Positions 11,902 to 61,050 of a stretch of 64,000 nucleotides of DNA are shown piece by piece. The translations under genes were made by a program, and so were the position numbers. Below the pieces are notes generated by a model. That model was not told the origin of the DNA. It worked only from the letters and a program-made list of their open reading frames with translations, and did not search any database. The stretch spans positions 1 through 64,000 of the forward strand of contig JAAILG010000406.1 in assembly GCA_012026655.1 (NCBI GenBank), read 5' to 3'. This stretch comes from Hydrolagus affinis. Lineage: Eukaryota. Every line of letters begins with the position of its first letter. Positions within the stretch are counted from its first letter, which is position 1.

Positions 11902-11929
11902 TGCATGAAAACCAACTAACACTGCTAAT
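11902..11929 (+). promoter_or_regulatory. RBFOX (TGCATG) and QKI (ACTAAC..TAAT) splicing motifs downstream of the NCAM-180 exon
   Basis: TGCATG 11902-11907, ACTAAC 11915-11920, TAAT 11926-11929, about 90-115 nt after a weak donor. Confidence 0.55.
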
Positions 11930-13974: not shown

Positions 13975-14000
13975 GTGTGTGTGTGTGTGTGTGTGTGTGT
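13975..14000. repeat. (TG)n microsatellite
   Basis: Visible directly. Confidence 0.9.
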
Positions 14001-18048: not shown

Positions 18049-18148
18049 GAAAGTCCCGCTGGAGGAAAAGCCCAAAAAAGAAGGGATTGAAGTGAAGACA
18101 GTTCCCAACGAAGCCACACAAACAAATGACAATGAAAGCAAAGCATGA
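18049..18148 (+). CDS. NCAM1: NCAM1 last coding exon
   Basis: ctccccAG|G then KVPLEEKPKKEGIEVKTVPNEATQTNDNESKA*, the NCAM1 C-terminus; TGA at 18146-18148. Confidence 0.96.
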
Positions 18149-33084: not shown

Positions 33085-33246
33085 TCACATGTGCTTACGG
33101 AACTCAGCAATGACAACGGCATAAATGATTATGATTATCACCAGCACAATTATTCCGATTACAGTGGCTGCGATGTTGAGTTTTTTGGCTGTTTCAGCGT
33201 TGCGTCTGGCGCTCTCCATCGATCCCATGTTGGCCGAGTTCTGCGC
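33085..33246 (-). CDS. CD225/dispanin (IFITM-like) gene A, exon 2 (89 aa total)
   Basis: tttacAG| AQNSANMGSMESARRNAETAKKLNIAATVIGIIVLVIIIIIYAVVIAEFRKHM*; CD225 loop plus C-terminal TM helix. Absent from the ORF track. Pairing with exon 1 crosses an N gap. Confidence 0.88.
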   Translation of the reverse strand, partial: AQNSANMGSMESARRNAETAKKLNIAATVIGIIVLVIIIIIYAVVIAEFRKHM

Positions 33247-34985
33247 CTGTAAAGAAATCAATCGTTTTCACTGGCAGTTTGTTTACGAGATGCGCGCCGT
33301 ATCTCACAAGATGAGATGGGGACGGTTCGTTCAGTGTTTACGACAACAGCCACAAAATTACACTTGGGATAAATAACGCCTTTCACGTCAATCTCCGTGT
33401 CAGGATTCTGAGCTCACTGTCACTCCAATGCAGTGACGGGGTAGCATTGCATTAGTTCAACTGCCATCCTTCAGATAAGATAATAATAATATTAATAATA
33501 ACGTTAAGATATTCAACCAAAGTCCCATTTGTGCCTGAACAGATGCCTGTTCAAGGAAATGTCACCGCCTTGGGACGTCCTCCCGATGTGAAAAGCGCTT
33601 TCCAAATGTAATTTTGGTGTTTGCTATTGTTGTCGAAGATTCCCACGGCCCTATTTGAAAAGCGAAGGGTATTTCCTCCCATTGTCTTGGCCGTGAATCT
33701 CCCAGAGCAAGATTGAAATGATTCACCTCATGGGACACTGCGTTGGCGGAACATTGCCGCAGGCAAATTGACAACTCGGGTTTTCCCAGGAATACACAGT
33801 CACTACGCCTCCGTGAAGCTTAGGTCCACGGGCGCCTCACAGTGGTGGAGTCGAGGAAGGGAGAAGCGCGGGTGACCACAAGCACAGTTGAAGAGGTAGG
33901 TTTTTAGGTGGGATTTGAAGACAGATAGAGAAGGTCCGAGGTGCAGTGACTGAGGCAGCAAGTTGCATGGCTTAATAATTTGGCTCAATCCACGAGTGTT
34001 TGTGGAAGGCTGCTGTGCACAATTGGCTCACTAAATATACAATCAATCCATTTGACAGTGTGTTCTGTGAAGCGCTTTGAGACATTTGAAAGGCGTGACA
34101 AGGCTCACCATCAAATGCAAATTTTATCAAAGGAAAGGACAGTGTGACAACGACAGCCACAACAACTTGCGTTCATGCAGAGCCAGCATAGCATGTGAGG
34201 GGGAGAGCCTCGCATAGTTAAACGTTTCCGTGAAGCAATGGCTTAATTTATCTGTGGGCGTTGGCCTCTGTTTCCACTCTTTGCTCCCGTTCGGAACACA
34301 ATCGTGGGATTGAAGTCACAAACGCAGCAGACCAGAGTGTCCTCCAGTGACGGAGTTGGAGTGCCAGAAAACCAGGCTCGCCGACTATTCCTGCGTCAAA
34401 GATCGCAATTTTTCATTCCCTATAAACGTTTCTTTATTCCTGCTCCCACGGCAGATCTTAACCCTAGCTGCTGTGAAGGGCGCGAAATAAATTGTTGTTG
34501 TTCTTTCGAGGACACTGCTGTGTACAAATGGCAAAGCTCCTTTAACTACTCAGTGACAGTTGAAGCACTCCGCCAAGAGTTTTATTGCACAGTCTCCGCT
34601 CAATATCTGATAGCCCACCCTACTCTCGGCTCGGCCATTAAACTGTCACGTTTCAGGCTGATAACAGTCTGGGTTGTGGCGAGGGTCAGATCAGAGATGA
34701 AGCCTTTTCTCACACTTCAACCTCCTTAATTTGTTATCTCTCACAATGCATTTGGGAGTACAACTGTCGAGTAAACAGACCACAGACAGTCAAAGACAGC
34801 AATTTCATAATCCTTAAAATTTAATTTGGTGCCTTATCACAACGTGACAGCTTTATGATCAGGATCAGATATAGCGAGACAATCGTAATTTAAAAGGTTG
34901 TCTTAAAAGGTTGGGACGGTCACTGATTAGTTAAAAGTTACTTTACAGTTTGGTGCTGTCCCACGCAAAGTTAAACAACTATTAA

Positions 34986-35285
34986 TAATAATAATAATCC
35001 TTGCATTTGACGCTTTTCACGTCTTTTAGATGTCTCAAAACACTTCATGGAATATATTGTAAAGTGAAATTGACTGTGTTAATGTGGACGAAACGCGGCA
35101 GCCGATTGCTCACAGCAGTGTCCCACAAACAGACGTGGATTGGAATGAGCAATTGATTAATATTTTTTGAGGGATTGTTAGGCGTGTGGAGTAAGGAAAC
35201 TCGCCCAAGGTTTTTCCCTGCCTGAAATTGAACCCAGGTCTCTCGTTGCAAGCTGAATGCTCTAAACACTGAGCTACAGGACTCC
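34986..35285 (-). mobile_element. Same SINE family, in the intron of dispanin gene A
   Basis: Reverse-complement head ends gagctacaggactcc at 35285; AAT tail at about 34986. Confidence 0.85.
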
Positions 35286-36228
35286 AGAGTATATGATTGA
35301 AATGAATTATGAGCAAAGCTGCGGAGAAACTATGTATAGGGAATGGCACAGCTGGACTTAGTTCAACATCATGTATACATTTTAAAAATCTTAAATCTGG
35401 GATGCTTGTGTAACTTCTCAAAAAATTCAAAGAGCTTGTCGGACAATAATTATTCTTACGTTTCATACAGGCACCTTTCACATCAGAAGGACATTAAAAG
35501 TACTTCAAAGCCTTTTACTGCTTTGTGTAGTGTACTGATCACGAAGTGTAGCGATCGTATAATTTGTAGGCAAACGCAGCAGCCAATTTGCTCCAGATGG
35601 ACGGAGGAATGCGTTTCACATTTGGAGTTTGGGAGGGTAATGGAGGGGGGGGGCGGTGGGGAGGTGGTGGGGGTGGGTGGGAGGTATTGAGCTGTGCAGA
35701 GAGAAACTTTTCGCACAGTTATTGAAGCAATTGAAATGGTTTGACATTTCTGTGATTGACACTAATAACGGTAATACATAGAACAAATGAATCATTGAAC
35801 CAATAACAACTTGATATCTTGATGTCACAGTGGATGCTCTGAAGATAAAGCTCCATGAGACACGAAAGAACAAAATGCCCAGTAGTTCTTATCCCTTTCC
35901 ACTGGGGCGGGGTGTGGTTGTGTGGAAGTTGGTCAAAGAAGAAGTATTGAGGGTCTGGGTGCGGCTAAGGGGTGCAATAGGCAGTCTGAAATATTGGCTC
36001 ACTCAGAAATAAACTATCCCCCGAGGAACCCTTGCTTATCACAAAAGGCTCTTTCATTCCGAACGATTTCTTCCCTCGCAAGTTGAATCCATCAGAAACA
36101 AACTTAAGAGTTAGAGAAGCAATTTTACAACACAAAACGGCATCACTGACAGTTAATAGGAAATAGGAAAGAAGCAGCCGGCGATGTGATGTGACAATAA
36201 TAATCGCTGGTGTTAATTATCGCAGTGC

Positions 36229-36328
36229 NNNNNNNNNNNNNNNNNNNNNNNNNNNNNNNNNNNNNNNNNNNNNNNNNNNNNNNNNNNNNNNNNNNNNNNN
36301 NNNNNNNNNNNNNNNNNNNNNNNNNNNN
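36229..36328. other. Assembly gap (100 N)
   Basis: Run of N; true size unknown. Confidence 1.
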
Positions 36329-36608
36329 AGGGTGGCGGGTGGGGGTTGCAGAAAGCAACACAGTCAATATCACTGGTGACAATCACTCGGCTGGCATAGC
36401 CCAGTGTCTACTCGCATTTATATCCACCGCACGCCCGGACTTCTGAAGCTTTTAGAAAAGTCTCTGCGAGGGTTAGCGCATCCCTACACCCCCCGATTCC
36501 TCCGCCGCTCCCGAGCCGACCGGCGAGTGTTTACAGATAAACCGCAAGCTTGAGACGAGTCCTTTCCTTTCCCGTAAACAAACCCGGACACACTTTGGGG
36601 CCACGTAC

Positions 36609-36716
36609 CTGACAGGAATAGATCACCGCCGCTATTCCTAGCGGCAAACAGCAACAGACCAAGTTAAATATGGACCATCCCAAATAGGAGGACACTTGCA
36701 TTTGTGAGTTCTGCAT
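36609..36716 (-). CDS. CD225/dispanin (IFITM-like) gene A, exon 1
   Basis: ATG at 36716: MQNSQMQVSSYLGWSIFNLVCCCLPLGIAAVIYSCQ; donor CAG|GTACGT, phase 0; TATA box upstream. Confidence 0.9.
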
Positions 36717-36822
36717 GTTTGCACGAGTTACGCTGACTGCTTGATGGGGCTCTTGAGTTTTCAGTTGAGCTTTGCCTTGCTCCAAATACGAGTCTCTGGC
36801 ACAGAAAAACTGCTGCCCTCGG

Positions 36823-36860
36823 TATTTATACCATTGTACTTCTCATCGATGTGGGCGGTG
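36823..36860 (-). promoter_or_regulatory. Core promoter of dispanin gene A (TATA box and GC box)
   Basis: TATAAATA on the minus strand at 36830-36823, about 110 nt before the ATG; GGGCGG at 36853-36858. Confidence 0.6.
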
Positions 36861-37654
36861 CTTAACTGAAAGATATGCATGAAATGTGAGGCCAGACCGT
36901 TTTCTTTCAGCCACCAGATGAAATCCACACAAAATACTATCTGGAACAGAAAAACAGAAATTTCCTTTAGGGTGAGGTAGGGGGTGGTAGGAGGGGTGTG
37001 GGCGGGGGAGGAGAATGTTGTTCGTAAAGTGCTGGAAATAAATGTGTTGAAGCAGAAATTGTCCTGTTTTTAAAAGTTAGTTTTTGTTCGTTCCGGAGGT
37101 TTTACTGCACAGATGGAGACCATTCAGACTGTTTGATCCTCAAAGTCCTTTCCCTGGACTGCTCTGTTGTATTTCTCTTTTCATTTCATTTTCGTTTCGC
37201 CCACCCACGTACATCAGGTCAATTCTCTTTACGGTACATTCTGTGAAGCGCTTTGAGACGTCCAGAAGATGTGAAAAGCGCTAAATCCAATGCAAGGATT
37301 ATTATTATTTTCAAATATAGTTCACAAGATTGTTTCAGAAAGAAAAAAAAACGCCCTTCAGCAAGCCGATCGCATCCTTCAAGAACCACTCCACCCGACC
37401 ATTCTCTCATCACAGCATCAAGCTGCGTTTAACATGAGTCTCAGTGTCCTGGCCTCAACCATCTATCCTGGCATCCCTGGTATCTGTCCTGAATTTGCCC
37501 TTTGATAAGCATTTATTTTTTCAATCCCATTGAAATTTTACGCACTTTTATCAGGTTCCCACTGAGTCCTCAGGGCTCTGTCCGTGGTCCTCACCTCTCC
37601 AACATCTACTCGCTCCTTGCTGGTGGCATCATCTCCAGACATGTTTTGAGGGAT

Positions 37655-38690
37655 AATACAATAACAACTTTGATTTCTACAGCGCCCTCCACGCCGGACG
37701 GTGTCTCAGAATGCTTCACAATAGCGGATCCAGGGAAGGAGCCAGGGGCAGGGGTAGAAAGGTGACCAAAGGCGCGGTCGAAGAGAAAGGTCTTCAGCTG
37801 GGACCTGAAACTGGGAAGAGAGGGGCCAAGGCGAATGGAGTGAGGAAGGGAGTTTCAGAGCCTCGGGGCGTAGTGGCTGAAGGCACGACCGCTGAGGGTG
37901 GAGCGGAGGATTCAGGGGGACATGGAGAAGGCCAGACCCGGTGGAAGGAAGGCAGCGGTTGCTGGGTTGGGGAGAGAGGAGATCAGAGAGGTAGGGGGTG
38001 CAGAGGAGTGGAGGGATTTGAAAACCAGGGTGAGGATCTTGAAGTTGATCCTCTCTGGGATAGGGAGCCAGTGAAGTCTGGCAAGGACTGGAGTAATGGG
38101 GGAGCGAAGTTTGGTGCGGGTGAGTAGGCGGGCAGCAAAGTTTTGAATTAGCTGGATTTTGTGGATTGTGGTGGAGGGGAGATCGGTGAGGAGAGCATTG
38201 GAATAGGGCAGCCGAGAGGTGACAAACGCATGGACCAGGGTTTCAGTGGCTTTTGGGGTGAGGTATTGCCGGAGACGGACGATCCATTGGAGGTGGTAGA
38301 AGGCGGTGCTGGTGAGGGACCAGATGTGGGGGAGGAAGGACAGTTGGGGGTCGAACCTGACGCCAAAGTTGCGCACAGGTTCGGAGAGTTTTAGGGGCAG
38401 GCCGGGAAGGTGGAGGAGGTGAGAGCCGTGCGAATGGAGATGTTGACCAGAGCCAAAGAGTACGGCCTCCGTCTTGTCGACATCCAGCTGCAGGAAGTTC
38501 GCGCTCATCCAGCTCCTGATGTCTGACAGACAGGCTGACAGAACATCAGGATTCTGGGGGGTGGCGCGGGTCGCAAAGTGAAAAATAGAGTTGGGTGTCA
38601 TCAGCACACATGTGGGAGTGTGCCCCATGTGTGCGGATGACATCCCCAAGAGGGAGCGTGCAGATGAGGAAGAGGAGGGGGCCAAGGAGG
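37655..38690 (-). mobile_element. 5'-truncated L2-clade LINE (RT C-terminal half and 3' tail)
   Basis: [10 protein letters not shown] (YADD box) near 38590-38612, then WMSANFLQLDVDKTE...VRNFGV...AFVTSRL...LHWLPIPERINFKIL; frameshifted; tail ends in TTG/TTA repeats at about 37660. Confidence 0.9.
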
Positions 38691-40860
38691 TACGTCACGG
38701 GGGGGGGTGGGAAGAGAGACATTTAGGGTGATGAGGGAGGCTCGGGGCAGCAGCCAAAACACTCACGCAGAGACCAGGAGTAAGTGATCAGCAGGACGAC
38801 ACCAACCCGTGGGCTGTGTGGCCAGGGAGGGATGGGCTGACTGTGACATCAGTCTCACATCACTTTTTAGTTTTTTCGCTGCTGGTCCTCCTTTATTTTC
38901 AGTTCGCTGTGCTTTTATCCCCAATGCTCCTCCCTCCCTCCCTCTCTCCCATCTCTGCTGACTCTACTGTAATACTGTACTACAGGACTGCTACCAATCC
39001 TTGCATTTGATATAGCACTTTTTATGATTTAACATGCTCGAAAAGCACTGTGAAAGGAGTTTCTCTGGGCATCCAAGGCCAACAATCCCTCAGGTGAAAA
39101 CTGCTCAATCATTCACACATTCCATTGTCAAGGTAATATTGTTATTATTGGGGGGGGGGGGTGGGTTGCTCACAAATATAGTTACTTCACTTTAAGTATT
39201 TTCTGTGAAGCGTTTTGAGACGTCTAGAAGATGTGAAAAGCGCTATATCAAATGCAAGGATTATTATTACTGTCACCCTGTGATTTGCTGTATATCTCTC
39301 CCCTTTCCACCTTGTCGTTTATTCCTCTCGTCCTCTCTCCCCGTCAATCTGTCTCCTCACTTCCCCCAGATCTGTTGCCACCCTTATCATTATCTGCCAT
39401 ACTCCTACCTTATCTTTCCCTATTCTTGTAAATTTCCTGTGGTCCATGCTTAATATTCCTCTGCGCTGATAACTGCTCGATCTCGTACAATGAGATGACA
39501 TCCGTTTGCTTTGCATTCAGTCAAGTTCAACGCCCTATTTTGGAAATCTGTGGAAATCTTGTGAAGCTACTCTCGGTTTCTTGTGCAGTGTGTTTAGTGC
39601 CTTTGAACCTGTGTCTTATTGTGGGTTACTTTGTTTCATATTAACAATAATCCTTTTAAAAAATTTTAAATAAATCTGTCGTTTCAATCCACGACTTTGC
39701 GGGACACTGCTGTGCGCAATCGCCTGTCTACGTCCAAGTGCTCTTGCATCTAAAGTGCTAGGGTTGTGTTTGTGTGTGTAAGTGTGTGTGTGAGAGAGAG
39801 GAGGAAAATGGGTTGCCATAGTCACGGAGAGGGTAAAATAGGTGGTTTGATGTTTAATGCTGTAATAACTAGTATTTTTCACTTCCCCAATATTTTCCAG
39901 TGGATGTTTTTCACTGTGTTGTTGACACTTTCTTTGCAGCCAAGGGTTGTCGCCTGTAGATCATCAGTCTGTCAGGCGTTGAAGGCTGCCTTGAAAAGCT
40001 TGTTGATTTAGAGATTGAGAGATCACAGGTGGGCAAAGTCGCAGGGGTAGACATCAAAATCATAAATGAACAGTAATACATTGGCCATTTCAATCCACGG
40101 CTGTTTGTGGGGACACTGCTGTCCGCAATTGGCTGCCGCGTTTGTCCCACGCAATATTCAGTCAATTCATTTTACAGTGAATTCTGTGAAACGTTTTGAA
40201 CTGTCATGATAATGATAAAAATAATAATCTCTACATTTATATAGCGCTTTCCACGTCTTATCGACGTCTCAATGCGCTTCAGAGAATACAACGACGTCCC
40301 AAGGTAGGGACCAGAGCAGGGGGGGGGGGGGGAGGGAGAAGACAAGAGGGAAGAAAGGGGGGAAAAGAGGTATGGACCAGAGCAGTGGCGGAGGAGTCGT
40401 GGTTGGGGAAAGGAAAGTAGGAAAATTGTTATTGTTATTTGATGCATTTTGGCACTATTTCAAAATGCGAGGAAATTCTATTCTTATTCTTAATTCAAAA
40501 GGACCCCTTCCCCAACAATAGCAGGAAATTGACCGATTCAAACTTGGCATTCACGTTGGCGTTCATCACTTTGCTTCCGGTGGACTAGAAAATGAGAAAC
40601 AGGTTGAACGACAAAACGTTACTCTCAGTGTTGTGCGTTTATTGAGCCTTGCGCCTTATTGCGCGTACAGGAATATTATAGGAGAGCAGAAGGAATAAAC
40701 TGGGCGAATCGTACGGGCATTGCCTGGATCACAACGAGATGCTCTTTGCATCGTGCTGATTCGATTGGAAAATGCCTCGGTTTGCAGTGGCAGGGGGCTC
40801 TTCCGCACAGCCGCCCGGAGAGCGTTTGGGAATCCTTTACCAGAGTGTCCGGCGCAAACT

Positions 40861-41022
40861 TCAGGAGTGAGCTGCGAGTCTTAAGCCACCAATAATTGAC
40901 CAAATCAATGTAAAAATGATCAGGAGCACTCCAGTAGCGTTTCCCGCGATGTTGAGTTTCTTGGCAGTGTCAGCGGCGTTCTTGGCCTTTTCCAAATTCC
41001 CAGAATCGAGCGAGTTCTTGGC
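40861..41022 (-). CDS. CD225/dispanin (IFITM-like) gene B, exon 2 (93 aa total)
   Basis: tttatcAG| AKNSLDSGNLEKAKNAADTAKKLNIAGNATGVLLIIFTLIWSIIGGLRLAAHS*; minus-strand AATAAA at 40643-40638. Confidence 0.9.
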   Translation of the reverse strand, partial: AKNSLDSGNLEKAKNAADTAKKLNIAGNATGVLLIIFTLIWSIIGGLRLAAHS

Positions 41023-42527
41023 CTGATAAAGTACAGTTAAACCGTGTTCAGTTACAGGCAATGCAGGATTGACTCATGCGATCCGATTGGAATGAACTAC
41101 AGTTGCCCAGTGTCCTCATCGCAGGTTTCTAAGTAGCTCCAGGGAAGTAAATGACTAAATAAATGAATAGGTTATTATTTGTGGCCCACGTCTATTTCAA
41201 TTTGTCTCTCTCTGCCTTTTCTCTTCAATGGCACTGTGGTAAGAAATAATAACAGTAATAATAATAATAATCCTTGCATTACCAATTCATGACTTGGGGC
41301 CAGTGGTATCTGACCAGGGCTTGTTTGAAGGACCAACAATGAGCGAAAACTGCAATGCTCGTGTAAGATTACTACTTTTGTATCTTGGGGAAGGCCTTAG
41401 ATGACTGTAGGCAGCAGGAAATGCCATGACAAAACATGAAACTGTGAAGTAACATTTCTTCCTGAAAGCCTTGATCCATGTTTAATTGTTTTGCGTAACG
41501 TCCTGCCTGCCTCCCTCCCTTCCTCCGTCCCTTCCCACCCCGTACCCCAACCCTCTACTCTTTTCCCCATCGAACTGACTGCATGGTGAAATGGGTTGGT
41601 GGGATTTAAGATTTGAGAATGAAAATTGACTCGTTCGATCTAGACCGAATGGAGAGTTCACATTGGAAGCGCAAAGAAATCTGATCCAAGTTTCCCCTCA
41701 GTGTTTGAGAGCTGTCTCTGGCTCTTTCCATCTGTTGTTTTGCTGCAGCTTTAGCAGCCTCCAGCGCTGCTGAATCTGACCTGATTCAGATGTGGTTCTG
41801 TGACAGTGCCTAGCTTCAAGAACTCCTCTCTGCTGTTGGTGGTGGGAGGGGGGGGAGGGGGGAATCACTTGGTGCCAACAACGCTAAAGGCAGATTGTCT
41901 GAAGAGGCCCCCGCAAGTAGCTGAGCTCTCAGACAGAGACAAATAGCAAAGTACAGCAACCTTCCCAACACACACGGCAGAGTGGGAGTGTTTGATTCAA
42001 AGACTGATTCGATGTTGCTTCAGCTGCTCGGAGGTCCACAAGAAACTACAACAGAGCAGGTTGAGGGGACATCGCTCACTCGCTCACTCGCTCGATCGCT
42101 CGATCGCTCGGTCAATCAACAACCCAGGAAAATGCCGCAGTTCTACATCCAACTTGCACTCAATGCATTCCGTGTTTGGTTTGAGTGTCACATCAAGGGT
42201 TATTTGCGCGGTTCGTTTTGCCCGAGAGTGGGGCGAAAGACCAACGCAAAATGACCGCGTTGAGTCTGTTGCGAAACGATTCGGGGCATAAACCCCGGCA
42301 ACTTGAAAGCCATGGAAGGCGACACACCGGGAGATCGGCGAAGTCCGCACACTTTGCCTGACAACAGCCATGACAAACTTGCATTGATGCAGTGCTCGGT
42401 GCAATGCCACACGCACTATGCTCTCGGCATCCAAATGACACTCGAGGAATGGCGAGGTTAAACGTCTCCTTGCCGAGATTTGCTGTAACCGTCGAGGAGA
42501 AAAACAATCATAAAATGGACAGCTAAC

Positions 42528-42647
42528 CTGACAGGAGTAAATCAGCGCAGCTATTCCCAGCGGAAAGCAGCAGCACAGCATATTAATAACGGACCAGATT
42601 AAATAGTCTGTTACTTTTGAAGCTAGTGACCTTTCTTTGCTCTCCAT
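42528..42647 (-). CDS. CD225/dispanin (IFITM-like) gene B, exon 1
   Basis: aagATGg: MESKERSLASKVTDYLIWSVINMLCCCFPLGIAALIYSCQ; donor CAG|GTTAGC, phase 0. Confidence 0.9.
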
Positions 42648-45600
42648 CTTCGGCTGATCTTCCCGGCGGCTGGGGGAAAAAAGCGACCTTTCGAAGAGTT
42701 CTGGGCACTTGTTTCCTCAGACTTTACGCTGCTCCTTTTGTGGCCCGCTGCCATCCGGGAAAAAAAACTAGGCAAAGAAAACGCAGAGAAAAGTCATAAC
42801 ATCAAAATTCAGGTCGGACAAAAAAAAGCACAAGTAAAAAAAAAAAAAAACTCCTTTTCAACAATGCATCAGTGGGGGAATCTTTAACTCGAACAGGCAA
42901 ACGGTACCTCAGCATTTTACATCAGGCAGGAAATTGCTTTGTCAAACTGAGGACAAGGCTTTGCGAGAGGAATAAACTGTTCGAGTCGTGTTCCAATTCA
43001 CCCTCATCGCTCTTCTTAAGCTCGAGGGAAAACCATGATAGTTCCCGCAATTATACACGTCAACTTTCAGCTGAGGTGCTAACCCAGTCAATGCTCGAAA
43101 GGCTTCGACTAAATATCTCTAAGCCCTTTATGACATCCTCCTAAACTAAACATTGTATGAATATAAATTGTATCATTGTACAAGAACAATAGTTTTACGC
43201 TTGTATAGGGCCCTTTATGTCGGGAGGACAGCCAATATTTCAGACCCGAGCTGGGGTTGGGATTGAGAAGTGATGGAGTGGGGAAAGGGGTTTGACCGAA
43301 GGAACGATCAAAGAGGAGGGTCTTGAGGCGGGACTTGAAAGAGTTTAGGGAGGAGCCGAGGTAGAGCAATTGGCAAAATAATGTAAGATCATAAACACAC
43401 TGTAAAAGGGAAACAGGAAATTCCAATTTCCATCTTATCGTAGCCTCTTATCTTGAAAACTATTTTGTCTTAAAATTACAATCATTAAAAAAACAATTGT
43501 TTTGAGTGTTTAGACCCTTCATTTGGAAACTGGCTTAGAATAATAATAATCCTTGCATTTGAGATAAACATGTTTATCATTTTATTAGGCTTGTATTCTT
43601 CTTATTATTATTTTTCTTCTAATGATCTTGCTTTTCTCTCACACATACTCTCCACAATTGGCAAACAGGCCTTCAGCCCCCACCAGCTGGAATTCCATCC
43701 TGCAGTCCCTCTGCCTCGTCTCGCCCCATCCCTTGTCTCCTTCTTGCCTCAAGGCCCTCCTCTTTGCCCGATCAACCTCCCTTCCCCCAGCACTGCCCTC
43801 CACTCTCCCCAATTGTCAGAGGTGCCGTGGTTGAATAATAATAATAATAATTCTTGCAATTGATATAGCACCTTATCACGTCTTCGAGACTTGATCAAAG
43901 AGCTTCACAGAGTCTACGGTCAAGTGAATTGACTGTGAATTTCGTGGACAAAATGTTTGTATGGGAAGCTAAAACTAAGTCCTATCTGAGCCTGTGTTTA
44001 AGTTAAATATTCCGTGCATTATTCGAAGTGATGAGGGAATTTCTCCCGGTGCCCTAGCCAACAAACAGATAAAATGGGTCACAATTGTGTGTGAGAAACT
44101 GCTGTGTGTAAATTTGGCTGCCTAAAAAATGCATATTGGCTGCACATTTGCAGAAACTCTGTGAAGCTTTTTGAGATGTTCCAAGTATTCCAGGAGTTAT
44201 ATCAAATGCATTGATTGTTCAGTTAAATCAATGGAAGCAAAGGTTAAGTATTCATTGGGTTGCAAGGAAGTGGCCAGCAGATTGCCTCAGGGGTCATTGC
44301 TCGGATATCTCTTGTTTACTCGCAGTGGTGTCCTGGCCAACAATTCCCCAGATTAAACAAAAAAGCGGTCGTTCACTTCACAGTTGCGTGTGGGACATTG
44401 CTGTGAATGAATTGGGTGCCGAATTTGCCTACAGAATACGCAGTCTACAGAAAATGCTTTAAGGGTACTGTGAAAAATGAAACAATTACTATTCTTATTA
44501 TTAATAACCCTTGCATTTTCACATCTCAAAACGCTTTGCTCTTTGACTGTTTGTTCAATCATCCTTTCCTCCCCTTCCACCCACCCCTCCACCAGCTTGG
44601 GTCTAATTGGTTACATCTAGGCTCGACTTCGCCAATTTCCTGCTTATCAGCCTTCCTAACTCTTCCCTCCACAAGCTGATCCAGAACTCTGAAGCTCATG
44701 TCCTCTCCCGCATATGACCATGTCACTGCCCACCACCGTCACCCAGCTCTACTGTCCCCCGCCCACCCTATCCATTTATATATATAATAATATATTATTG
44801 TATATAAGTAAGATATATGAAGCATTTTGAGACGTGTTGAAGACATGAAAAGCGCTATATCAAATGCAAGGATTATTATTATTATCCACCAGGACAGGTC
44901 CTCAAAATCCTCATCCTCGCTATCAAAGCCCTCCACACCCTTGTTCCTTCCTACCTCTGTGATCTGCTAAAGCCAGATCAACTTTCAGCCACTACGCCCC
45001 GAAGCTTTGGAACTCTCTCCCTCAATCCCCCTGCCTTGTATCTTCCTCCCATCTCTTAGATCATGACTGAAGAACTTCCTCTTCGACCAAGCTTCAGGTT
45101 CTGCCACTATTCAGCAGGACGCTGCCCCTTATATAGCACCTTGGGATGTCCTCCCAACGTGAAAGGCACTATACAAGTGTGTTGTTGTTGTAGTAGTAAA
45201 GGGCCATATATAAATGCAAGCTGTTATTGTTATACCACCTCTTCGGTGCCATTACCTGACTTGGTTAATCTTGTCTTTAGTCGATCAAAGCTTTTTATTT
45301 TGCATATTTCCCAATCGATCGCCTTATCGTTCCTGTTCTTCTGCTGGTGTCTAAACCGTCAGTTTTATCTCGTTCAAAAATCGTCCTGTTCACATTCTGG
45401 AACTCAACTCGTTTAAAACGTCAGCATTCCGGATTCCGGTCCTTCAGCTAAAATCGCTTCTTGGTGTGGTCGAACCTGAGCTTGTGAGCTACCTTCATAA
45501 TATCTACAACCACAACAACAAAATGATATCCGGAGTCGACCACAAATCACTTGAACAGTATATTCTGTGAAGCGGTTGAGACGTCCAGAAGATGTGAAAA

Positions 45601-46773: not shown

Positions 46774-46980
46774 CGGTAAAAGCCCGTTTATCCAGCACCC
46801 AATCAACCGAAACTTCGGTATAACCGGCATCGCAAAAAAAAAAAGGTCCTCATTCGATAATGAATTCGGAATTTATCCAGAAAAATGCACTTTTTGTTTG
46901 CGTTTTCGGACGAATATCCAGCAGGCGCTATAACCGGCATTGGCCAGGTCCCGAGGGTGCCAGATAAACCGGCTTTTTCT
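46774..46980. mobile_element. Tc1/pogo(Tigger)-like MITE
   Basis: TA|CGGTAAAAGCCCGTTTATCCAGCACCC at the left and GGGTGCCAGATAAACCGGCTTTT at the right form imperfect terminal inverted repeats. Confidence 0.7.
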
Positions 46981-49900: not shown

Positions 49901-50025
49901 GTGTATTTGTGAGCCAATCTGTTCCACGAACTGCCAGGAAGTGAGTGACCAGATCGTGATAACACAATCATTGGAGTATCATTATTAAGGTTTTAATAAG
50001 TAATCTGTTTGGTCACTTGGGAGGT

Positions 50026-50166
50026 CTACGACCAATACAATCTATATACGATTACAATAGTAAAAACGATAACTCCTATGATTGTTGAAGCTGTGTTTAC
50101 CCATTGGGTGACGTGAGATATGCGTCTTGCTTTCTCTAATTCACCGTTTGAAATGGCAATGTCAAC
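50026..50166 (-). CDS. CD225/dispanin (IFITM-like) gene C, exon 2 (82 aa total)
   Basis: tttttAG| VDIAISNGELEKARRISHVTQWVNTASTIIGVIVFTIVIVYRLYWS*; aligns with exon 2 of A, B and D. Absent from the ORF track. Confidence 0.85.
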   Translation of the reverse strand, partial: VDIAISNGELEKARRISHVTQWVNTASTIIGVIVFTIVIVYRLYWS

Positions 50167-51348: not shown

Positions 51349-51456
51349 TTTACAGGAGAGAATCAGTGCAACTATTCCAAGTGGAAAAAAGCAGAAGAGC
51401 AGAGTGCAAACAGACCAGCTCATGTATGTTGGCACTCGTTCTTCAATGTATTCCAT
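51349..51456 (-). CDS. CD225/dispanin (IFITM-like) gene C, exon 1
   Basis: aagATGg at 51456: MEYIEERVPTYMSWSVCTLLFCFFPLGIVALILSCK; donor AAA|GTGAGT, phase 0. Confidence 0.87.
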
Positions 51457-53244
51457 CTTGGGTGATTTTCCCAGAGATATCAGCTGTGTCCTCGCCACTG
51501 TTCCATGCAGTAATTTTCAGCTCGCGATGGCCCGGTCACCCCTGTATGATACAATATGACAGCACAATTCACATTCGTATAGAGCTCTTCACTTCCAAGA
51601 AGATGTCTTAAAGTATGTAATCATATTAATAATAATCCTTGCTTTTGATATAGCGCCTTACCAACTCTTCGAGACGTCTCAAAGTGGTTCACAGTGGCTG
51701 AAGGCACAGTCGAGCAGGAGGGTCTTGAGTTAAGATTAACTATGATCTGTGTTAATAGAGGTTGTTTAAGTTTATTTTACCTCATAGCAAGCTCTTTGAT
51801 TGGCCAACAAAAGAAATGCTTCTCGACCGAGTGTTTCTTTATTTATTCCATAAGCCTATGCTGCGTTCGTTGTTTCTACGAACATTTTTGTTGATCCACT
51901 GAAAAGGTCACTGCACAAATGTGAGGATTACCATGATTGCCACTGTAATATTATCAGTCAGAATAATGAAACAGTTATCATGCCACAATTCACATATGCC
52001 CCGTTTCACCTCCCCCGCCCCAAAAATACAGCCAATACGCCTGGTGGTGTATTCCCTGAAGCGCATTGAGATGTCTCAATTGCTGTGCGCAATTGGCTGC
52101 CGCGATTCGCCCACAAATATACAGTCCATTCACTTTACAGTATATTCTGTGAAGCGCTTTGGGACGTCGATAAGATGTGAAAAGCTGCTAAATCAAATGC
52201 CAGGATTAGTATTCTTATTAGTCTCGGAGATGTGATAAGATGCTGTAGGTGTGGCTTCATGGATAACACAACTTGATGTTGGCTTCATGTGGTAGTTCAT
52301 GCGTTGGATGGTGAGATGGTGTTAGACAGGTTAGATAGTTTTCTTTTAGGAAATACATGGGATATATATTACATTAGATAGTTTGAGACATGCGTACAAA
52401 CGACCGCCAGGAAGGTGGAAGGCAAACTAACTGGACCTTCGGCTTATTTCTGTCCGGCATTTCTTATGTTCTTATGTGTTCTGGAGATCAGATGGGTTGC
52501 AAGGCCCCTTCTTAGTCCAGACAAATATTGTGAGCTTGTGAGGTCTGCCTTAGGTCACCTTGGGAAGGGGAGGTGCGTAGGGGGGGGCAGATATCGCAAA
52601 GATGTGCAGGATAGCTGGTTCAGACAGACAGCACGAAGGCAGACATCACAGAGGCGTATTGTTGGACACAATTAACCAGCTATCCGGTGCCATGGAAACT
52701 GTTGCCACTCTATCAGAATCAAATACAGTAAAAGCCAATCATCTACATGCTCATTTATTTACCCGCCTCGCTTTGAAATCATTCATCTGTCGTGCAGAGG
52801 GCAACTTCCAGAGAGATACAGAGAAGTCTGTCTTTACCTAGAGGGCAATTAATGAGTGGAACAAGCTGCCAGGAAAGTGGTTGAGGCCAAGACACTGGAA
52901 CCATTTAAGAAGCAACTTGATGCTGTGATGGTGGGTGGGGGTTGGCAACAAAATTACATTTGTACAGCGCCTTTCGCGTCGGGAGGACTTCCCAAGGTGC
53001 TGGACAGACAGCTGGACCACAGCTGGAGGTAGGGATTAGGGAGGTTGGAGGGCAAGGTAGTGGTGGGAGTTTGGAGGTGGGGGGGATGGGGGGAGGAAGG
53101 AAGATGATCGAGGTGGATTGTAGAGTGGATTGTCCTGGAGAGAAGAGATCCAGATGAGCCGAACAAATCTTGTAACTCCAGCTTGTCTTGCTTTCCTATG
53201 CAAAGAGCAAAATCCTATGCCGTTAACTGCACTTTCGGTCATCT

Positions 53245-53289
53245 TCCCTCCCTCCCTCCCTCCCTCCCTCCCTCCCTCCCTCCCTCCCT
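53245..53289. repeat. (TCCC)n tetranucleotide repeat
   Basis: Visible directly. Confidence 0.9.
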
Positions 53290-54530
53290 TGCTCTGCTCT
53301 GCTCTTCTCAGGATCCTGCTCAGTTTCTGCGTGCGTGTAATTAGCAGGCAAATGGTCTATTCCCGTTCAGCGAAACAATCTCTGTCTTATGTGAAAGGCG
53401 CTGTATAAGTGCAAGTGGGTTTCGTGGTTTTTCTGGGAGAATAAATGCATTCCCCAAATAGTATGTCACTGATGTCAAATCCCAAGTATAAAAGGACATT
53501 AACCAGAGCCTCCAGTGCTTTTGTCATTGGCGTAACAAACAAGTTAAAGGCAAATGAACTGGAGAATGAAATTAGTGTTTCAAATACGGACAAGAGCGTG
53601 AGTGACTGCATTTCTCACTTAGGCTTGGGTTGCTTCCTTCCGCTTTGTTACACGAATCTTGCTTTTTTTTTGTTTCCTCGGAAAAAAAAATGAAGCCTTG
53701 CATTTCGTCGAGCGCCTTTCACGTCAGGCACCCGTCTTGAAAATGCTTCATTGGATTTACTGTGAAGCGTAGTTACTGTGTTTTTGTAGGTGAACGCAGC
53801 TGCAAAGTCCCACAAACAGGGACTTTTCGCATCTTCTAGCCGTCTCAGAGCGGTTGACAGAATACACTGTCAAGTGAACTGACTGTATATTTGTGGGCGA
53901 AACGCGGCAGCCAGTTACGCACGGCAGAATGCAAGGATTCTGAATATTACCATTGGAAATTGTTGGAGCGGAATCTCAGTGTAGACAGTCACAGCGAGCG
54001 AGCTCCATCGCTTGACATGGAACCTGGACTCACAGACTTCTGCTTCCGAAGTCAGATGAAATCTCAAACGACTTTCAATAGCTGGTGAAGCTCTGGAAGT
54101 AAAAAGAATAGTGTGGCTTCTTGTTTATTCAAAAGGAAAAGATATTTAATCGCCAAAGCCTATGAGGAAGGCTCACAGTGTGGCTCGCTGCCGACCAATT
54201 ATTGAAGATGTACTTTAGTGTAAAGGATAGATTTCAAACACATTAGTTATCCACATGGAAATCATCAGATTGTGGAGTGGAAGAGGATGAATCCGATATA
54301 AAATGGCTATGCACAGCCAGAGGAAAGTCAGACACTGCCCTCTAGCAGCTGATAGAAATATTATACATTTGGACATAGGATCATGGAATATTACAGCAGA
54401 GAAAGAGGCCATTTGGCCCATCATGCCGATTGCCTGCTCTTTTGAAGAGCCTTCCAATCAACAACAACCACAACTTGCATTCATATAGGGACCCTCACAG
54501 AGACTGTTTTAACAGAATCAATTCCATGTT

Positions 54531-54820
54531 GGAGTCCTGTAGCTCAGTGGTTAGAGCACTGGCCTTACAAGCGGTTGGATTCCAGGCAGGGCAAAACCTT
54601 GGGCAAGTTTCCTTACTCCTCACGCCTGACAATAATCCCCCCCAAAATAATAATAAATTGACTGTTTCAATCCACGACTGCTTGTGGGACACTGCTGTGC
54701 GCAATTGGCTGCCACATTTTGTCCACATATATACAGTCAATTCACTTTACAGCATGTTCTGTGAAGCGCCTTGAGACGTCTAGAAGACATGAAGTGCACT
54801 GTATCAAATGCAAGGATTCC
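54531..54820 (+). mobile_element. Same SINE family, near full length
   Basis: GGAGTCCTGTAGCTCAGTGGTTAGAGCAC head, Deu core and tail. Confidence 0.85.
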
Positions 54821-55069
54821 TTACTTTTATTGTTAACATCGACGAAAACTAATTTGTCTTTTTAAAATTTAATTCTGGTCCATGCAGCATTTCCTGTCTA
54901 TTGAGGTAGAATTGAGTGGTTTAATATTTCCAGCAAACAGAATGATTGGCGTGGGGGGTAGTTGTTAACCACTCAACCACAAACTCAGCAAGACTGACAT
55001 AGATAAAAAATGAAAATACTCCAGATACTAGAGATCTGAAACAGATAACTATATATATCTGATATAGAT

Positions 55070-55350
55070 AATAATAATAATCCTTGCATTAGATATAGCG
55101 CTTTTCACGTCTTCTGAATGTCTCAAAGCGCTTCACAGAATATATTGTAAAGTTAATTGACTGTATATTTGTGGGTGAAATGCCGCAGATAGTTGTGCAC
55201 AGCAGTGTTCCACAAACAGCCGTGGATTAAAATGATTAATTTATTATAGTTATTAGGCATATGGAGTAAGTTTTTGCCCTGACCTGCCTGGATTCGAACA
55301 CAGGTCTTTACGCTTGTAAGGCGAGCGCTCTAACCACTGAGTGACAGGAA
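55070..55350 (-). mobile_element. Same SINE family, inverted copy
   Basis: Reverse complement of head, core and (ATT)n tail. Confidence 0.85.
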
Positions 55351-58300
55351 ACCACAACGATATTTCTGTGAGATATCTTCCAGGAGATAACTGCAGTCAG
55401 TAAGATCCCTCCCCACCAAAATAAATACATAAATAAATAATAGCGTAGCCACTCAATCCATGACTGTTTGTTGGACACTGCTGCGTTCAAGTGGCTGCCG
55501 TGTGCTACTGACTTTTTGTTTGCAGTGTTAATTGGTTTTTCAAACGGATCCCGTTTCCTGACCTCAACCTCCTTTCCTGGCAAACCCGTTCTAGTTGTTA
55601 ATCACCCTCTGGTCAAAGAAATATTCCTTGGCGTCCGTTCTGACATTACCCTTTGCACCTCTAAACTTGTGTCGCTTGTGTCGTCTCGCTCTCCCGTCTC
55701 AGTGCTTCCGAAAGTAAAACGGCAAGCTCAACAGAACCCGTCTGGCCTCTGACTGAACCAATACATTTAATTTGAAGTTCACGGAAAAGATCTGAATTGA
55801 ATTTCACGCTGACATTTAAGTACTACGATAATAATTGAACCCCAAAAGGCAACACCGAGTAACACGTCAGATGGTTTCCATAACGGATATCAAAAGATTA
55901 CAAAGTGAGGGGGTGGGAGGGGTGAGGGGGAGCTTGGTATCACGGTTCAGGTTAGTTTGATGTGAATGCCAGCTTGTCTCGAAACCATGACTGAATCACA
56001 GGCATTTTCCTGGTTAGGCATTGTTCAAAAGTATCTTTGCCGCTGTAAATTGTGGTGAATCATTTCAATCAAACTCAATGCGATTCTGAAGTTTCCTGAC
56101 TCCATACGCCTGAGTTTACCCAGCAGTAAGTAGGATCTCGGTTGTTAGTCGATTGATGGATCATTCTTCTGGGTTTAATAAATCCTTTGTTTAAAAAAAA
56201 ATTGGTCTCTAATCCACAGATGTTTGTGCGACACTGCTGGGCGCAGTTGACTGCCGCATTCCGCCCACAAAATATACGGTCAATTCACTTTACAGTATAT
56301 TCTGTGAAGCGCTTTAGACGTCTAGAAGAGGTGATAAGGCGTTATATAAAATGCAAGGATTATTATTATTGAAGCAAACCTTGATTGTCTTAGGACTCGA
56401 GGAGACATGATGGGTTTGTTCTGTTGAGCGCCCCACAGAAGAGCAAACGGTCAAGGAACAAACATTACGTAAATTATTCCCTCATCCCTAAACTGAATAC
56501 ACAAGCCGGAATAGGCGCTGTACATAAATTGCGTTGTATCCTAATGGCCCTTTTTTTTAACAAAAAAGAATTTATATAAGCTCTCATGTTCCTAAAACTA
56601 ACTGTCGCACTCGTCATCTGTTTCAAAGCAATTCCAGTTTGTCATCATGATTGAACTTCTGTTGCTTCAATGATTGGAACCACTGACAACTTCGTGAGGT
56701 CTGGTTGTGTGATACACATAGGACATGTTTGGCATGTCCAATATGTCGGGGATGGTGGGAGTGGCGGGTGGGTGGTGTGGGGGACAGGGGGGGGTTGTTG
56801 AGGGGAGAGTTTGGGCTGACTCGTTATATAGAGATGAAATCACGCCAGGACTGAAATTGATTCTCCACAACAAAAGTTAACTAACTTAATGATTGCTGGC
56901 GCAGCACATTGAACAATTGCTTTAAGCGGGAAGTGACTGCAGGGCACTCCAGCCTCACACCTCTAGATAAAAAGTGACAGTCCGACAGTCGTTAGGTTTT
57001 CAAAAGTCATCTCAACAGACTGAAATATTTCGGTTGGCATTTGCTGCTTAACATCACGTCAATTAACCATCCAGTGTCTCTACTGTTTAGCCTCAATTGT
57101 ATCTCACTGTGCGTTGTGTTGAGAATTTCCGAAGACCGGGCTTTTATTGTGTGATAAGCAGGAATTAAGTGGCAAAATCAATTCATTCAAACCAGCAGAA
57201 GTGACTGAAATAAATCTGATATTTTATTTGCACTATTTCGAACGCAAGGATTATTACGATAAGCGTAGAATAAATTCTGGTTAATTGATTGCCAAAATAC
57301 ATCGGTCTTCTCTGGGTCTAACTGAAATCAACGCAACTGACTCCTGATGGACAATCACAGGGTCTTAGTGTGATTGTACCAGCGACTTCAATCTTTAGAG
57401 CTTCCGATGAACTTGAAAGAAATTGAGTGACTTTTCTCAACTACAACAACAACAACAACAACTTAAACTTCTCAGGTGAGAACTAAACACTATTATCTCA
57501 TCTAAAGGATGGCACCTCTGACCTTATTGTCCACTTACAGGAAAGCATTGGAGTATCAACCTAGACTATATATGACTTCCCGAAGCCCCAACGTGAGACC
57601 CAAACCAACAATACTTTGACTCAGAGGCAAAATTTCCATTCCGAGACAGGCTATCGTTGGTTGTTTGCCGCCAGAGGGGAGAAGGGGTGAAGGGTTTCTG
57701 CAATATATTCTGCAATCTGCGCAAATGGGTGAGAGAGAATTCACTCTCTGTGAATCAGGCATCTCCAGTTAAGTATGCCTTGATGTGACCTTTCAGTTTT
57801 GTTCATCTGATCCATTCCAGTTGATTGTCTTTATCAAGGTTGAGTGAACAGATTCCATTTTAATTTCCCTCTTTAGATGGTGATTTTCTTTGTCGTTCTT
57901 GCAACTAATTCAAAGTGCGTTTAGCGAGAGCTTCAATCCCTAAAAATAGTTTGAAGTGTGAAGGTTTGTTTATTTGATTGCATTCGCTATTTTAAACGAT
58001 TTAAATTTATTCAAGCAGCTGGTTTCAAACATTAAATGTGGAAAAGTCTTTTGAAATATTCCATTTTTATGTCTTGTTTTCTTCAGAGATTTTTTATAAA
58101 CCGCAGTCCAAAAAGAAACAAACTTTTCTATCATATAGACTGTGTGAACCATAGCTTCACTGGTCACAAGGTGATTCATAGTGCTGATATGTGAAGACTG
58201 AGTTCTAGATAAATTCACGAGTGAATGCTAGGATATTTTGATAATAAAATGCTATATCAACTGTAAGAATTAGTAGTTTATTAAATGTGTGATTCCGTCA

Positions 58301-58876
58301 GCCAAGTAATACTATGGGGGATTGTTGCATTTCAGACTATGAGTGACTGAGAATAATATTTATAATAATAGTGATATTCTTTGTATTTGATATAGCATGT
58401 CTTATCATTATATCAGATGATGCGCTATATCAAATGTCTTCCAGACGTCGCAAAGTACTTCACAAGAATATACTGCAAAGTGAATTAACTGTATATTTTG
58501 TGGGCGAAACACGGCAGCCAATTGCTCACCGCAGCTTCCCTCTGACAGTTGTGGATTGAGTAACCAGGAATTGAGTGTTCAATTCCTGATGTGGGGAGGT
58601 GGGGGAGAGGGTGGGGGGGACGGGTGGTGGGGAAGGGTTGGTGGATACTTGAACCCACAACCTTCTGACGCCAAAAGATAATCACTATTGAAGTGCAACG
58701 TTCGATTGTCTTTCTCATTGTTTAAGATAGTGAAACCACGAATGGGCGGAACGAGCTGGCGACTCTGTTCCTGCCAGAAATTATCTGGAGAAAAAAAAAC
58801 GAGCGATCCGATTGAAAAACGCAACGTTATCTGGATTCCCAGAAGTGACCGGAAGAAAATACTCTGATGAAGATTC

Positions 58877-59062
58877 TCAAAACAAACGGTCCCACTCGAA
58901 TAAAAATAACTTTATTTGCTCAAGATGCAGCTTCAAATAAATCGGGATGACAAGGCACGTGATAAGGCATCCAATTGTGGTTGCGGCAGTGTTGGCGGTT
59001 TGGGAGTGGTTGGAAAACTGGATGGCTCATGGTCTGTCTCTGTACCACAAGGCGTTCGTCAC
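58877..59062 (-). pseudogene. Degenerate duplicate of dispanin gene D exon 2
   Basis: VTNALWYRDRP*AIQFSNHSQTANTAATTIGCLITCLVIPIYLKLHLEQ...; in-frame TGA at 59029-59027; acceptor AG changed to AT; flanks align with 60134-60636. Confidence 0.8.
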
Positions 59063-59305
59063 ATAAAAATAAAAATCCTTAATCAATCGAGAGACTTTTG
59101 CCAAAAATTCAGAAGTGTCCACACATTTACATTCTGAAGGAAATTTTTTTTTTGCCTCTTTTGTGATTGAAAAATGATCCTTAAACTTGAAACCGCTGAA
59201 TGCGTAGGGACTATCTCATTTGTACACGAGCGCAGCAATTAGTTTATACACAGAAACGTACCACAAACAGTCATTGGATAATGTCTTCGATCCTCGGGGT
59301 TCTGT

Positions 59306-59405
59306 NNNNNNNNNNNNNNNNNNNNNNNNNNNNNNNNNNNNNNNNNNNNNNNNNNNNNNNNNNNNNNNNNNNNNNNNNNNNNNNNNNNNNNNNNNNNNNN
59401 NNNNN
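59306..59405. other. Assembly gap (100 N)
   Basis: Run of N; true size unknown. Confidence 1.
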
Positions 59406-60184
59406 AAGCAACCACCTCTAGGGATGGTTCAAGAAACCATCTTGAAGACGGAGAAACCATCCAACGTGAAGTAGGTGAAAGCTCATCTACCAACTGAAAG
59501 CAAGAATGGATTCGGGAAGAGAATCAGAAGGGACAGGAACTTGGGGTCGAGAACCATATTCCAGTTTCCAAAGAAGACTGTCAACCACTTTCTCCACACT
59601 CTCAAACTGTACCACAGTGCCTGTATATCGTTTTGCTGATCGAACGGGCAGCTGTATAGAAGGACACTGAATACTTTTTGGTGGACATTAAATTGGACAA
59701 TACATTGGACAATACCCTTCCATCTCTTCTGCAACATTTGGTTTGGCCGACCTTATCTCTACCTGGATACGTAAGCATTACTCTATTGTATTCTTTTAAC
59801 TACCTGTAACCATGACTAATTTGAATGAAGTAAAACTTGATTAAATGTGCAAGATTTGTGTCGGTCTTTACTTCACCGCAGGGTCAAATTGGACGCCTCT
59901 TGCAGTGCCAGCATTTTTTCCAGCAAGAAAACATATCTGGGAACACACCTGAATGATGTGATTGAAAATGCGCTGTTTTGGAATCTGGATTACCTGAAGT
60001 AATTTGTGCCAGTGCCTGCGACTTGCATCATGTAAAAAATGTTCCAAAATTGGACTGCATTGAAATGTGCGTTCCCAATGGAGCTTTTCCCTTTCGGTCA
60101 AGGTTAGATCCCAGATCTGTTCCCGACGTCGTTAAAGTGAGGAGGAAAATACGTGTAGAAAAACTCAAAAACAAATGCTCGCAC

Positions 60185-60367
60185 TCAAATATAAATATCT
60201 TTATTTGTTTGTCTCCTAACCTGTTCCATCAATTCCTGCAAATAATACCAGGTTACAAAAATTGTGAAAAGGCATCCAAATATAGTTGCGGTAATGTTGG
60301 TGTATTTGGCGTTGTAGGATGCCCGGATTGCTTTCGCCATGTTTCCAGATGCCACGGCGTTGCTCAC
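60185..60367 (-). CDS. CD225/dispanin (IFITM-like) gene D, exon 2 (122 aa total)
   Basis: ttttttAG| VSNAVASGNMAKAIRASYNAKYTNITATIFGCLFTIFVTWYYLQELMEQVRRQTNKDIYI*. Confidence 0.88.
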   Translation of the reverse strand: MSNAVASGNMAKAIRASYNAKYTNITATIFGCLFTIFVTWYYLQELMEQVRRQTNKDIYI

Positions 60368-60864
60368 CTAAAAAATAAAAATCCGCGAACAATTGAGAGA
60401 CTTTCGTTCAAATTCTGAAGGCATCCAAACTTTCACATTTCTGAAAGGAAAACCTCCTTGCCTCTTTTATAATCGGAAAATAATCCTTGCATTCGAAACC
60501 ACGCACTCTCGCCTCAAAGTGCTTCACAAGGATTTTACTGCATTGCTTAGGGACTATCTAATTTGTGCACAACAAGCGCGGAAACATATCATGGACAGTC
60601 ATTAATGGATTAATGTCTTCTATCCTTGGGTTTGTGTTTAATGCTTCATCCACTGACAATCTAATTGTTCCTTGAGAGTGTCCCACAAAGAGTACCGAAT
60701 TGACTGACCAATTTATCATTATGATTAATTTATTATTCTAAAAAAATGATAATCTTTTCCCCCCACACCGCTCCCCCCACCCCACTCCTTACCACCCCCC
60801 CCCCACACACACACACACACACACTGAACATATTATTGTAATCAGTTGAGATGCAATCACTAAC

Positions 60865-61050
60865 CTTGTAAGAGTAGCTACAAGCAACTAACCCGAGTGG
60901 GAGGCAACAACAGCTGGCATTGAAAATCGACCAACTCAAGAAGGTTGACACTGGGGCTCCAGATGGGTAATGTATTTGATTAATGTTATGTTGTTGTTGT
61001 TGTTGTTGTTGTTGTTGTAATGGCACTCCAGAATACACCACATCATTCAT
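60865..61050 (-). CDS. CD225/dispanin (IFITM-like) gene D, exon 1, with polyQ
   Basis: ATG at 61050: MNDVVYSGVPLQQQQQQQQQHNINQIHYPSGAPVSTFLSWSIFNASCCCLPLGLVACSYSYK; donor AAG|GTTAGT, phase 0. Confidence 0.9.

Follow-up and report, generated by a model that had tools for sequence, protein, structure and literature searches.

A 64,000-nucleotide stretch of the genome of the chimaera Hydrolagus affinis (assembly GCA_012026655.1, contig JAAILG010000406.1, positions 1 to 64,000; referred to below as the window) carries an array of four intact two-exon CD225 genes on the minus strand beside NCAM1. Judged by their sequences, the four genes, designated D, C, B and A with increasing distance from NCAM1, are distinct from the canonical IFITMs and are members of a CC-x-PLG group that extends across the jawed vertebrates, and the NCAM1-linked locus is old. 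We hold this account of the identity and history of the array with high confidence. The best explanation of the whole, namely that an old NCAM1-linked CC-x-PLG array encodes fusion-restraining proteins and that gene D is possibly interferon-responsive, has in our judgment an even chance of being right. What remains is an old CD225 group, apparently not yet classified, at a second locus that has been conserved; the family itself is known, and the relatives of the array carry automatic names.

Structure of the array and its position next to NCAM1

A six-frame motif scan combined with exon modelling across the window recovered four co-oriented genes, which the initial annotation had described as two-exon CD225 genes of 89, 93, 82 and 122 amino acids (aa); each was found where it had been placed, on the minus strand. 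Gene D (89 aa) consists of exon 1 at 36609–36716 (36 codons with the first hydrophobic segment and CCC-x-PLG; PF04505 E = 2.6e-11; GT donor) and exon 2 at 33085–33246 (cytosolic loop, transmembrane helix and stop; E = 2.2e-8; AG acceptor). Gene C (93 aa) is made up of exon 1 at 42528–42647 (E = 1.5e-11; GT donor) and exon 2 at 40861–41022 (E = 9.8e-6; AG acceptor), and gene B (82 aa) of exon 1 at 51349–51456 (E = 3.7e-8; GT donor) and exon 2 at 50026–50166 (E = 1.5e-4). Gene A (122 aa), which has a longer N-terminus, comprises exon 1 at 60865–61050 (E = 1.2e-7) and exon 2 at 60185–60367 (E = 4.4e-5; AG acceptor). A search with the CD225 profile (PF04505), proposed earlier as a check, matched all eight exons separately, with E values from 1.5e-11 to 1.5e-4. 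The first exons span profile positions 3–30 and the second exons about 32–68, the two exons of each gene tiling the profile, and five of the eight pass the whole-protein cut-off alone.

In each of the four genes the intron is bounded by GT and AG, is in phase 0 and lies at the identical codon inside the cytosolic loop; the phase and the shared codon agree with the initial annotation. The hallmarks of dispanins, according to the available part of PMC3282796, are a double cysteine in segment 1, a loop glycine and a conserved intron in the cytosolic loop. The loop glycine is present in all four genes, CCC in A, C and D, and a single cysteine at that place in B; the aspartate of the G-D motif is substituted throughout. 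Nearly all dispanins possess the loop intron (PMC3282796, as far as available), and sharing it therefore does not mark these genes as IFITMs. Pairwise identity among the four proteins is 32–47%.

The position directly downstream of NCAM1 was likewise confirmed. tblastn with NCAM1 of the elephant shark Callorhinchus milii placed the 3' exons of the gene (transmembrane, cytoplasmic and last coding exon) at 7690–18148 on the plus strand, with exon matches at 7690–7914, one ending at 9794, one at 11009–11815 and the last ending at 18145; the transmembrane exon is 97% identical to that of C. milii. The NCAM1 stop lies near 18148 and the array begins 15 kb beyond, on the opposite strand, so the arrangement is convergent, tail to tail. 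No Pfam match was obtained for any of 110 open reading frames of at least 58 aa between NCAM1 and gene D or past gene A, a result that leaves room for a gene of small exons and is consistent with the array being the direct downstream neighbour of NCAM1. The only runs of N in the window are 36229–36328 (100 N, inside the intron of gene D) and 59306–59405 (beside gene A), and the interval from NCAM1 to exon 2 of gene D is free of assembly gaps, which speaks against a scaffolding error, the possibility raised earlier for this adjacency.

We regard it as extremely unlikely that the array is an artefact, consisting of unexpressed remnants or of a misassembly that joined it to NCAM1 or mispaired the exons of gene D. 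The gap inside the intron of gene D and the lack of RNA evidence from this genome would fit such a view, but the four frames are open and bear correct splice sites, a spliced elephant-shark record has the same junction, the interval between NCAM1 and exon 2 of gene D is continuous, and the corresponding genes appear to be neighbours in a catshark as well.

Relatives, linkage and age of the duplications

A profile search retrieved 751 proteins, and the figures on relatives given here refer to the best 120 of these. Where named, they come from sharks, skate, bichir, sturgeon, teleosts, frogs, lizards, turtles and crocodilians, and no bird is named among them; one tilapia protein is also labelled ferret in one source, which we take as a database error. 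The PLG proline is present in all 120 and CCC in 116, while CCLG occurs in none of the 120 and in none of the four array genes. The array genes are short, contain S-I..N..CC-x-PLG and have their best matches inside the CC-x-PLG group. The record nearest to gene D is C. milii K4FSL6/AFK10675.1, named 'interferon induced protein 2', with 72 of 86 residues identical overall and 94% identity for exon 1. This spliced record is joined at the same exon junction as gene D and thereby supports the pairing of the two D exons across the intron gap. Elephant-shark counterparts of A, B and C were not present among the matches listed. The 'interferon induced protein 2' of the channel catfish Ictalurus punctatus is also a member of the CC-x-PLG group. 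Other relatives are automatically and inconsistently named 'dispanin subfamily A member 2b-like', 'SynDIG1-like' or 'PRRT1B-like'; these shark, ray, bony fish, frog and reptile genes share the motif, the small size and, in the six comparable non-teleosts, the chromosome of NCAM1, but are not handled as one group in the papers examined.

The array genes resemble IFITM1/2/3 in the CD225 domain, two coding exons, short termini, a WS..N start, adjacent cysteines, the loop glycine and tandem clustering. They differ from them in having PLG instead of CLG and in lacking K[AS]RD and the equivalents of R85 and G95. For IFITMs of fish, frogs and lizards, the available part of Table S1 of PMC3499546 contains 16 rows, all of which, by eye, show CLG followed by K[AS]RD. 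The loci differ too, IFITM1/2/3 lying between ATHL1/PGGHG and B4GALNT4 and the array beside NCAM1, with its other flank outside the window. The PLG type and the NCAM1 neighbour thus uphold the proposal that these genes are separate from the canonical IFITMs and occupy a different locus. PLG is, however, common among 150 listed representatives, including an annelid protein and many unnamed ones; the motif is therefore probably ancestral and by itself defines no clade.

Linkage to NCAM1 in other species was judged by whether the records of a family member and of NCAM1 cite sequences of identical size, together with accession order; Chiloscyllium, whose records come from different assemblies, was omitted from the count. 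A member and NCAM1 share a sequence of the same size in three elasmobranchs, S. torazame (135,740,748), Rhinoraja (29,347,269) and Narcine (179,661,875), and in three frogs, Hyla (145,440,957), Dendropsophus (93,520,944) and Leptodactylus (185,957,714), that is, in six of six comparable non-teleosts from two independent lineages. The linkage is consequently not the lineage oddity that the non-canonical locus had suggested. In a catshark draft, NCAM1 (GCB63044.1) and a family member (GCB63045.1) have consecutive accessions, which points to next-door genes; GCB63045.1 groups with gene D (FastTree 0.93), which is the NCAM1-proximal gene in the window. Accession spacing in the skate and the frogs is uninformative on adjacency. 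Adjacency to NCAM1 is supported for cartilaginous fish, and linkage at the level of the chromosome for frogs.

The age of the duplications was assessed with a FastTree tree of 265 rows, from which three fragmentary proteins had been removed beforehand, an IQ-TREE tree of 50 rows and 87 columns, in which the bootstrap was not fully settled, and a 27-row tree. The trees hold no canonical vertebrate IFITM, none being present among the 120 and 150 listed proteins, and their deep branches are poorly resolved. In the 50-row tree, gene B pairs with Narcine bancroftii P0341 (98/96), gene C with Scyliorhinus canicula P0011 (96/93) and gene D with C. milii (98/94), shark genes also being partners of D, while gene A sits on a long branch without a partner. 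The pairings of B, C and D recur in the 27-row tree, where the approximately unbiased test rejected a clade of chimaera genes only, both for B, C and D (p = 0.032) and for A to D (p = 0.0004); the hypothesis was that of the initial annotation and the test was run after the first tree was known. These pairings and the rejection indicate that the duplications predate the split of chimaeras and elasmobranchs, and the expansion proposed earlier is old, as B and C have elasmobranch partners of their own and D has partners in the elephant shark and in sharks. The split dates to about 400 million years ago.

According to a further proposal, the array might be a rapidly diverging antiviral cluster that originated independently, at a new locus, within the cartilaginous fish. 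B, C and D do form a chondrichthyan group with their elasmobranch partners, weakly supported and in one tree only (70/98 in the 50-row tree), and between gene D and its elephant-shark partner 14 of 86 residues are different, with the NCAM1 transmembrane exon 97% identical between the same species. However, genes of the same type occur in bony fish, frogs and reptiles, three frogs share the NCAM1 chromosome, and turtle, gharial and anole genes group with the chondrichthyan array genes at 95/93 in the 27-row tree. We therefore keep the weak chondrichthyan grouping and consider the proposal as a whole very improbable. The CC-x-PLG clade itself, for 22 rows without the frogs, is supported at 84/91 in the 27-row tree and is unresolved in the 50-row tree.

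A well-supported elasmobranch lineage of the group, composed of P0035, P0057 and P0265 (99/98) and located in Rhinoraja on the NCAM1 chromosome, pairs with none of the four genes. Its counterpart may have been lost here, may lie outside the window or may be a distant partner of gene A.

Predicted proteins and the question of function

By analogy with IFITM3 and PRRT2 (PMC7665892 and PMC11730294), exon 1 would encode a membrane-embedded segment whose adjacent cysteines would be palmitoylated, and exon 2 a cytosolic loop followed by one C-terminal transmembrane helix. By altering the order or curvature of the bilayer, such proteins would impede the fusion of endosomal or plasma membranes, viral entry included. 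On these grounds the array proteins are likely to be small, palmitoylated and membrane-bound and to restrain membrane fusion. An AlphaFold model of the elephant-shark record P0001, built from a 30-sequence alignment, predicts two long helices (residues 11–42 and 47–85) with modest confidence (mean predicted local distance difference test score 68.7, predicted template modelling score 0.37). A fold search with this model against the PDB gave zero matches at E ≤ 0.001, and a search of the ESM Atlas returned bacterial CD225 clusters only.

The only clear sequence match of P0001 in the PDB is PRRT1 (E = 3.5e-6), which raises the question whether the proteins serve in neurons as auxiliary subunits, like SynDIG1/PRRT1, and are regulated together with the neural neighbourhood of NCAM1-TTC12-ANKK1-DRD2. 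The CD225 domain shared with PRRT1/SynDIG4 and SYNDIG1, the frequent automatic names SynDIG1-like or PRRT1B-like and the old linkage to NCAM1 all fit this idea, as does the C-x-P-x-G motif, which is closer to the human SynDIG1/PRRT1 subfamilies than to human IFITM. Yet the automatic names vary randomly within the group, and PLG, being common in unnamed and invertebrate CD225 proteins, is probably ancestral. Moreover, according to the available part of PMC3282796, PRRT1/SynDIG4 and SYNDIG1 (subfamilies D1 and C) possess extended N-termini and an additional exon encoding N-terminal sequence, whereas the array genes as modelled encode 82–122 aa in two coding exons, with neither of these features, and the elephant-shark record begins at the ATG of gene D. 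Pyrimidine-rich stretches ending in AG lie just 5' of the ATG of genes C (around 42670, minus strand) and D (around 36796, minus strand) and may be 3' splice sites belonging to 5' exons outside the models, a qualification to the comparison of N-termini. We judge the neuronal explanation to be improbable.

Four lines of evidence were counted toward an immune role of the array. The first, absent from the initial annotation, is a decayed paralogue of exon 2 of gene A at 58895–59062 on the minus strand (lower end approximate; tblastn E = 1.4e-4), about 1.1 kb below the stop of gene A, with 68% DNA identity to it over 373 bp, flanks included. The copy has lost its acceptor AG and carries an in-frame stop and a 16-nt deletion, and hence the array records at least one gene birth and death. 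No exon 1 is visible for it; the assembly gap at 59306–59405 adjoins, in which the exon 1 of this fifth gene, or further copies, may be hidden. Second, near-consecutive locus tags in four catfishes indicate tandem arrays there. Third, the elephant-shark and channel-catfish members are both called 'interferon induced protein 2'. The elephant-shark name was probably copied by similarity; the catfish gene was reportedly found as induced by polyinosinic:polycytidylic acid (poly(I:C)). For either gene we found database records only and no functional study. Fourth, four tandem GAAA units resembling an interferon regulatory factor site or interferon-stimulated response element (ISRE) are located at 37179–37198 on the minus strand and precede the start codon of gene D by about 480 nt. 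This candidate site is unique in the window, and four units arose in none of 100 third-order Markov simulations, three units in 17.

In view of this evidence, an interferon-linked antiviral role through fusion restriction is plausible, and we place it somewhat below even odds. The most far-reaching version, an unrecognised dispanin subfamily of NCAM1-linked, interferon-responsive fusion inhibitors that dates from the first jawed vertebrates, blocks viral entry despite lacking the arginine and glycine required by IFITM3, multiplied separately in sharks, catfishes and frogs and was lost in birds and mammals, appears rather unlikely to us in its entirety.

A number of observations weigh against these proposals. 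The first GAAA unit shares sequence with the end of a common interspersed repeat, and in A, B and C the 1.5 kb of upstream sequence contains no ISRE-like site. An Atlantic cod spleen probe with the catfish 'interferon induced protein 2' as its best match was down 2.38-fold after poly(I:C) (PMC3534563, in the part available). Fixed, divided roles would account no less well than an arms race for paralogue lineages that have persisted since chimaeras and sharks separated. As for the deeper history, the frog genes are placed outside the shark/reptile group by both trees and share only the chromosome with NCAM1, the accession numbers being hundreds apart, and in none of four comparable teleosts (Hemibagrus, Eleginops, Cottoperca, Kryptolebias) is a member on the ncam1a chromosome, ncam1b not being in the list. 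The helix following WS has a hydrophobic moment over 8 residues of 0.25–0.34 in A, B and D, which is weakly amphipathic, and of 0.61 in C, values obtained without an IFITM3 control. Finally, the equivalents of two residues needed by IFITM3 are absent from all four genes. These are the R-SNARE-like arginine R85 and the second glycine, G95, of GxxxG (G91/G95), according to the available parts of PMC7665892 and PMC11730294; IFITM5 and IFITM10 likewise have no intact GxxxG (PMC7665892). The R85 equivalent is Q, K, D and S across the array and R in 13 of the best 120 relatives, mostly frogs; the G95 equivalent is S, K, K and K, and GxxxG is found in none of the 109 relatives having the loop motif. 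Without the SNARE-like arginine and the second glycine, the array proteins would use contacts other than those of IFITM3.

Several of the same observations agree with a function outside immunity, in which the proteins, like PRRT2, TRARG1 and TMEM233, would regulate vesicle trafficking or fusion constitutively and in a tissue-specific way, the paralogues having subfunctionalised. The old paralogue lineages with elasmobranch partners of their own, the lower signal of the cod probe, the missing ISRE-like sites at three of the four genes and the general role of CD225 proteins in trafficking (PMC11730294, as far as available) speak for it. The copy turnover and the tandem arrays in several lineages speak against it, as does the GAAA array at gene D, and the SNARE-like arginine of PRRT2 is absent from all four genes and from 107 of the 120 relatives. 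We regard a purely trafficking role as a serious but unlikely alternative to fusion restriction with a possible interferon response of gene D.

An old second locus would revise the view held of the origin of the vertebrate fusion-restricting proteins. Its natural variants without residues thought essential in IFITM3 would offer a test of the current mechanism, and candidate immune genes would be added in farmed fish. On current evidence, the array is an under-annotated conserved gene family with automatic database names.

The N-terminus of gene A contains a run of nine glutamines encoded by a CAA repeat and a Yxx-hydrophobic motif at residues 6–9. A motif of this kind near the start resembles the endocytic signal of IFITM3. 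The product of gene A may sort to endosomes, and those of B to D may not.

Earlier descriptions and further observations

No description of the CC-x-PLG group or of its link to NCAM1 was found in the literature searched, with most subscription journals outside its coverage. The 'aquatic IFITM10-like' group (Zhang et al., 2012; PMC3499546) was weighed as a possible earlier account of these genes, but its rows, in the part available, are of the canonical CLG type, and it was therefore discarded. A preprint on grass-puffer prrt1l concerns, as far as accessible, a longer PRRT1-like gene. The main text of a preprint on zebrafish interferon-stimulated genes (ISGs) mentions neither IFITM nor CD225, and its supplements may list members; in a 2026 review of fish ISGs, IFITM appears only in a reference. 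A blue-catfish paper lists an expansion of CD225/dispanin genes and does not give their type. The accessible parts of the gene table of the dispanin classification and of a second survey of IFITM/dispanin evolution include no genome of a cartilaginous fish. For its zebrafish and frog genes, classified by BLAST, the table of Sallman Almen (2012) supplies accession numbers alone, and some of them may belong to the CC-x-PLG group.

Another CD225 group of the PLG type, whose N-termini are longer (P0119, P0262, P0263, P0267 and many of the listed representatives, with named records from carp and sardine), forms a clade of its own in the 50-row tree (99/93). Two longer reptile proteins of the PLG type, from a turtle and a python (P0324 and P0356), are annotated as uncharacterised and are 285–293 aa long. 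In the neighbouring gene, the large cytoplasmic exon of NCAM1 (10919–11833, plus strand), which we take to be of the NCAM-180 type, is intact and 85% identical to that of C. milii, about the same divergence as that of gene D from its elephant-shark partner.

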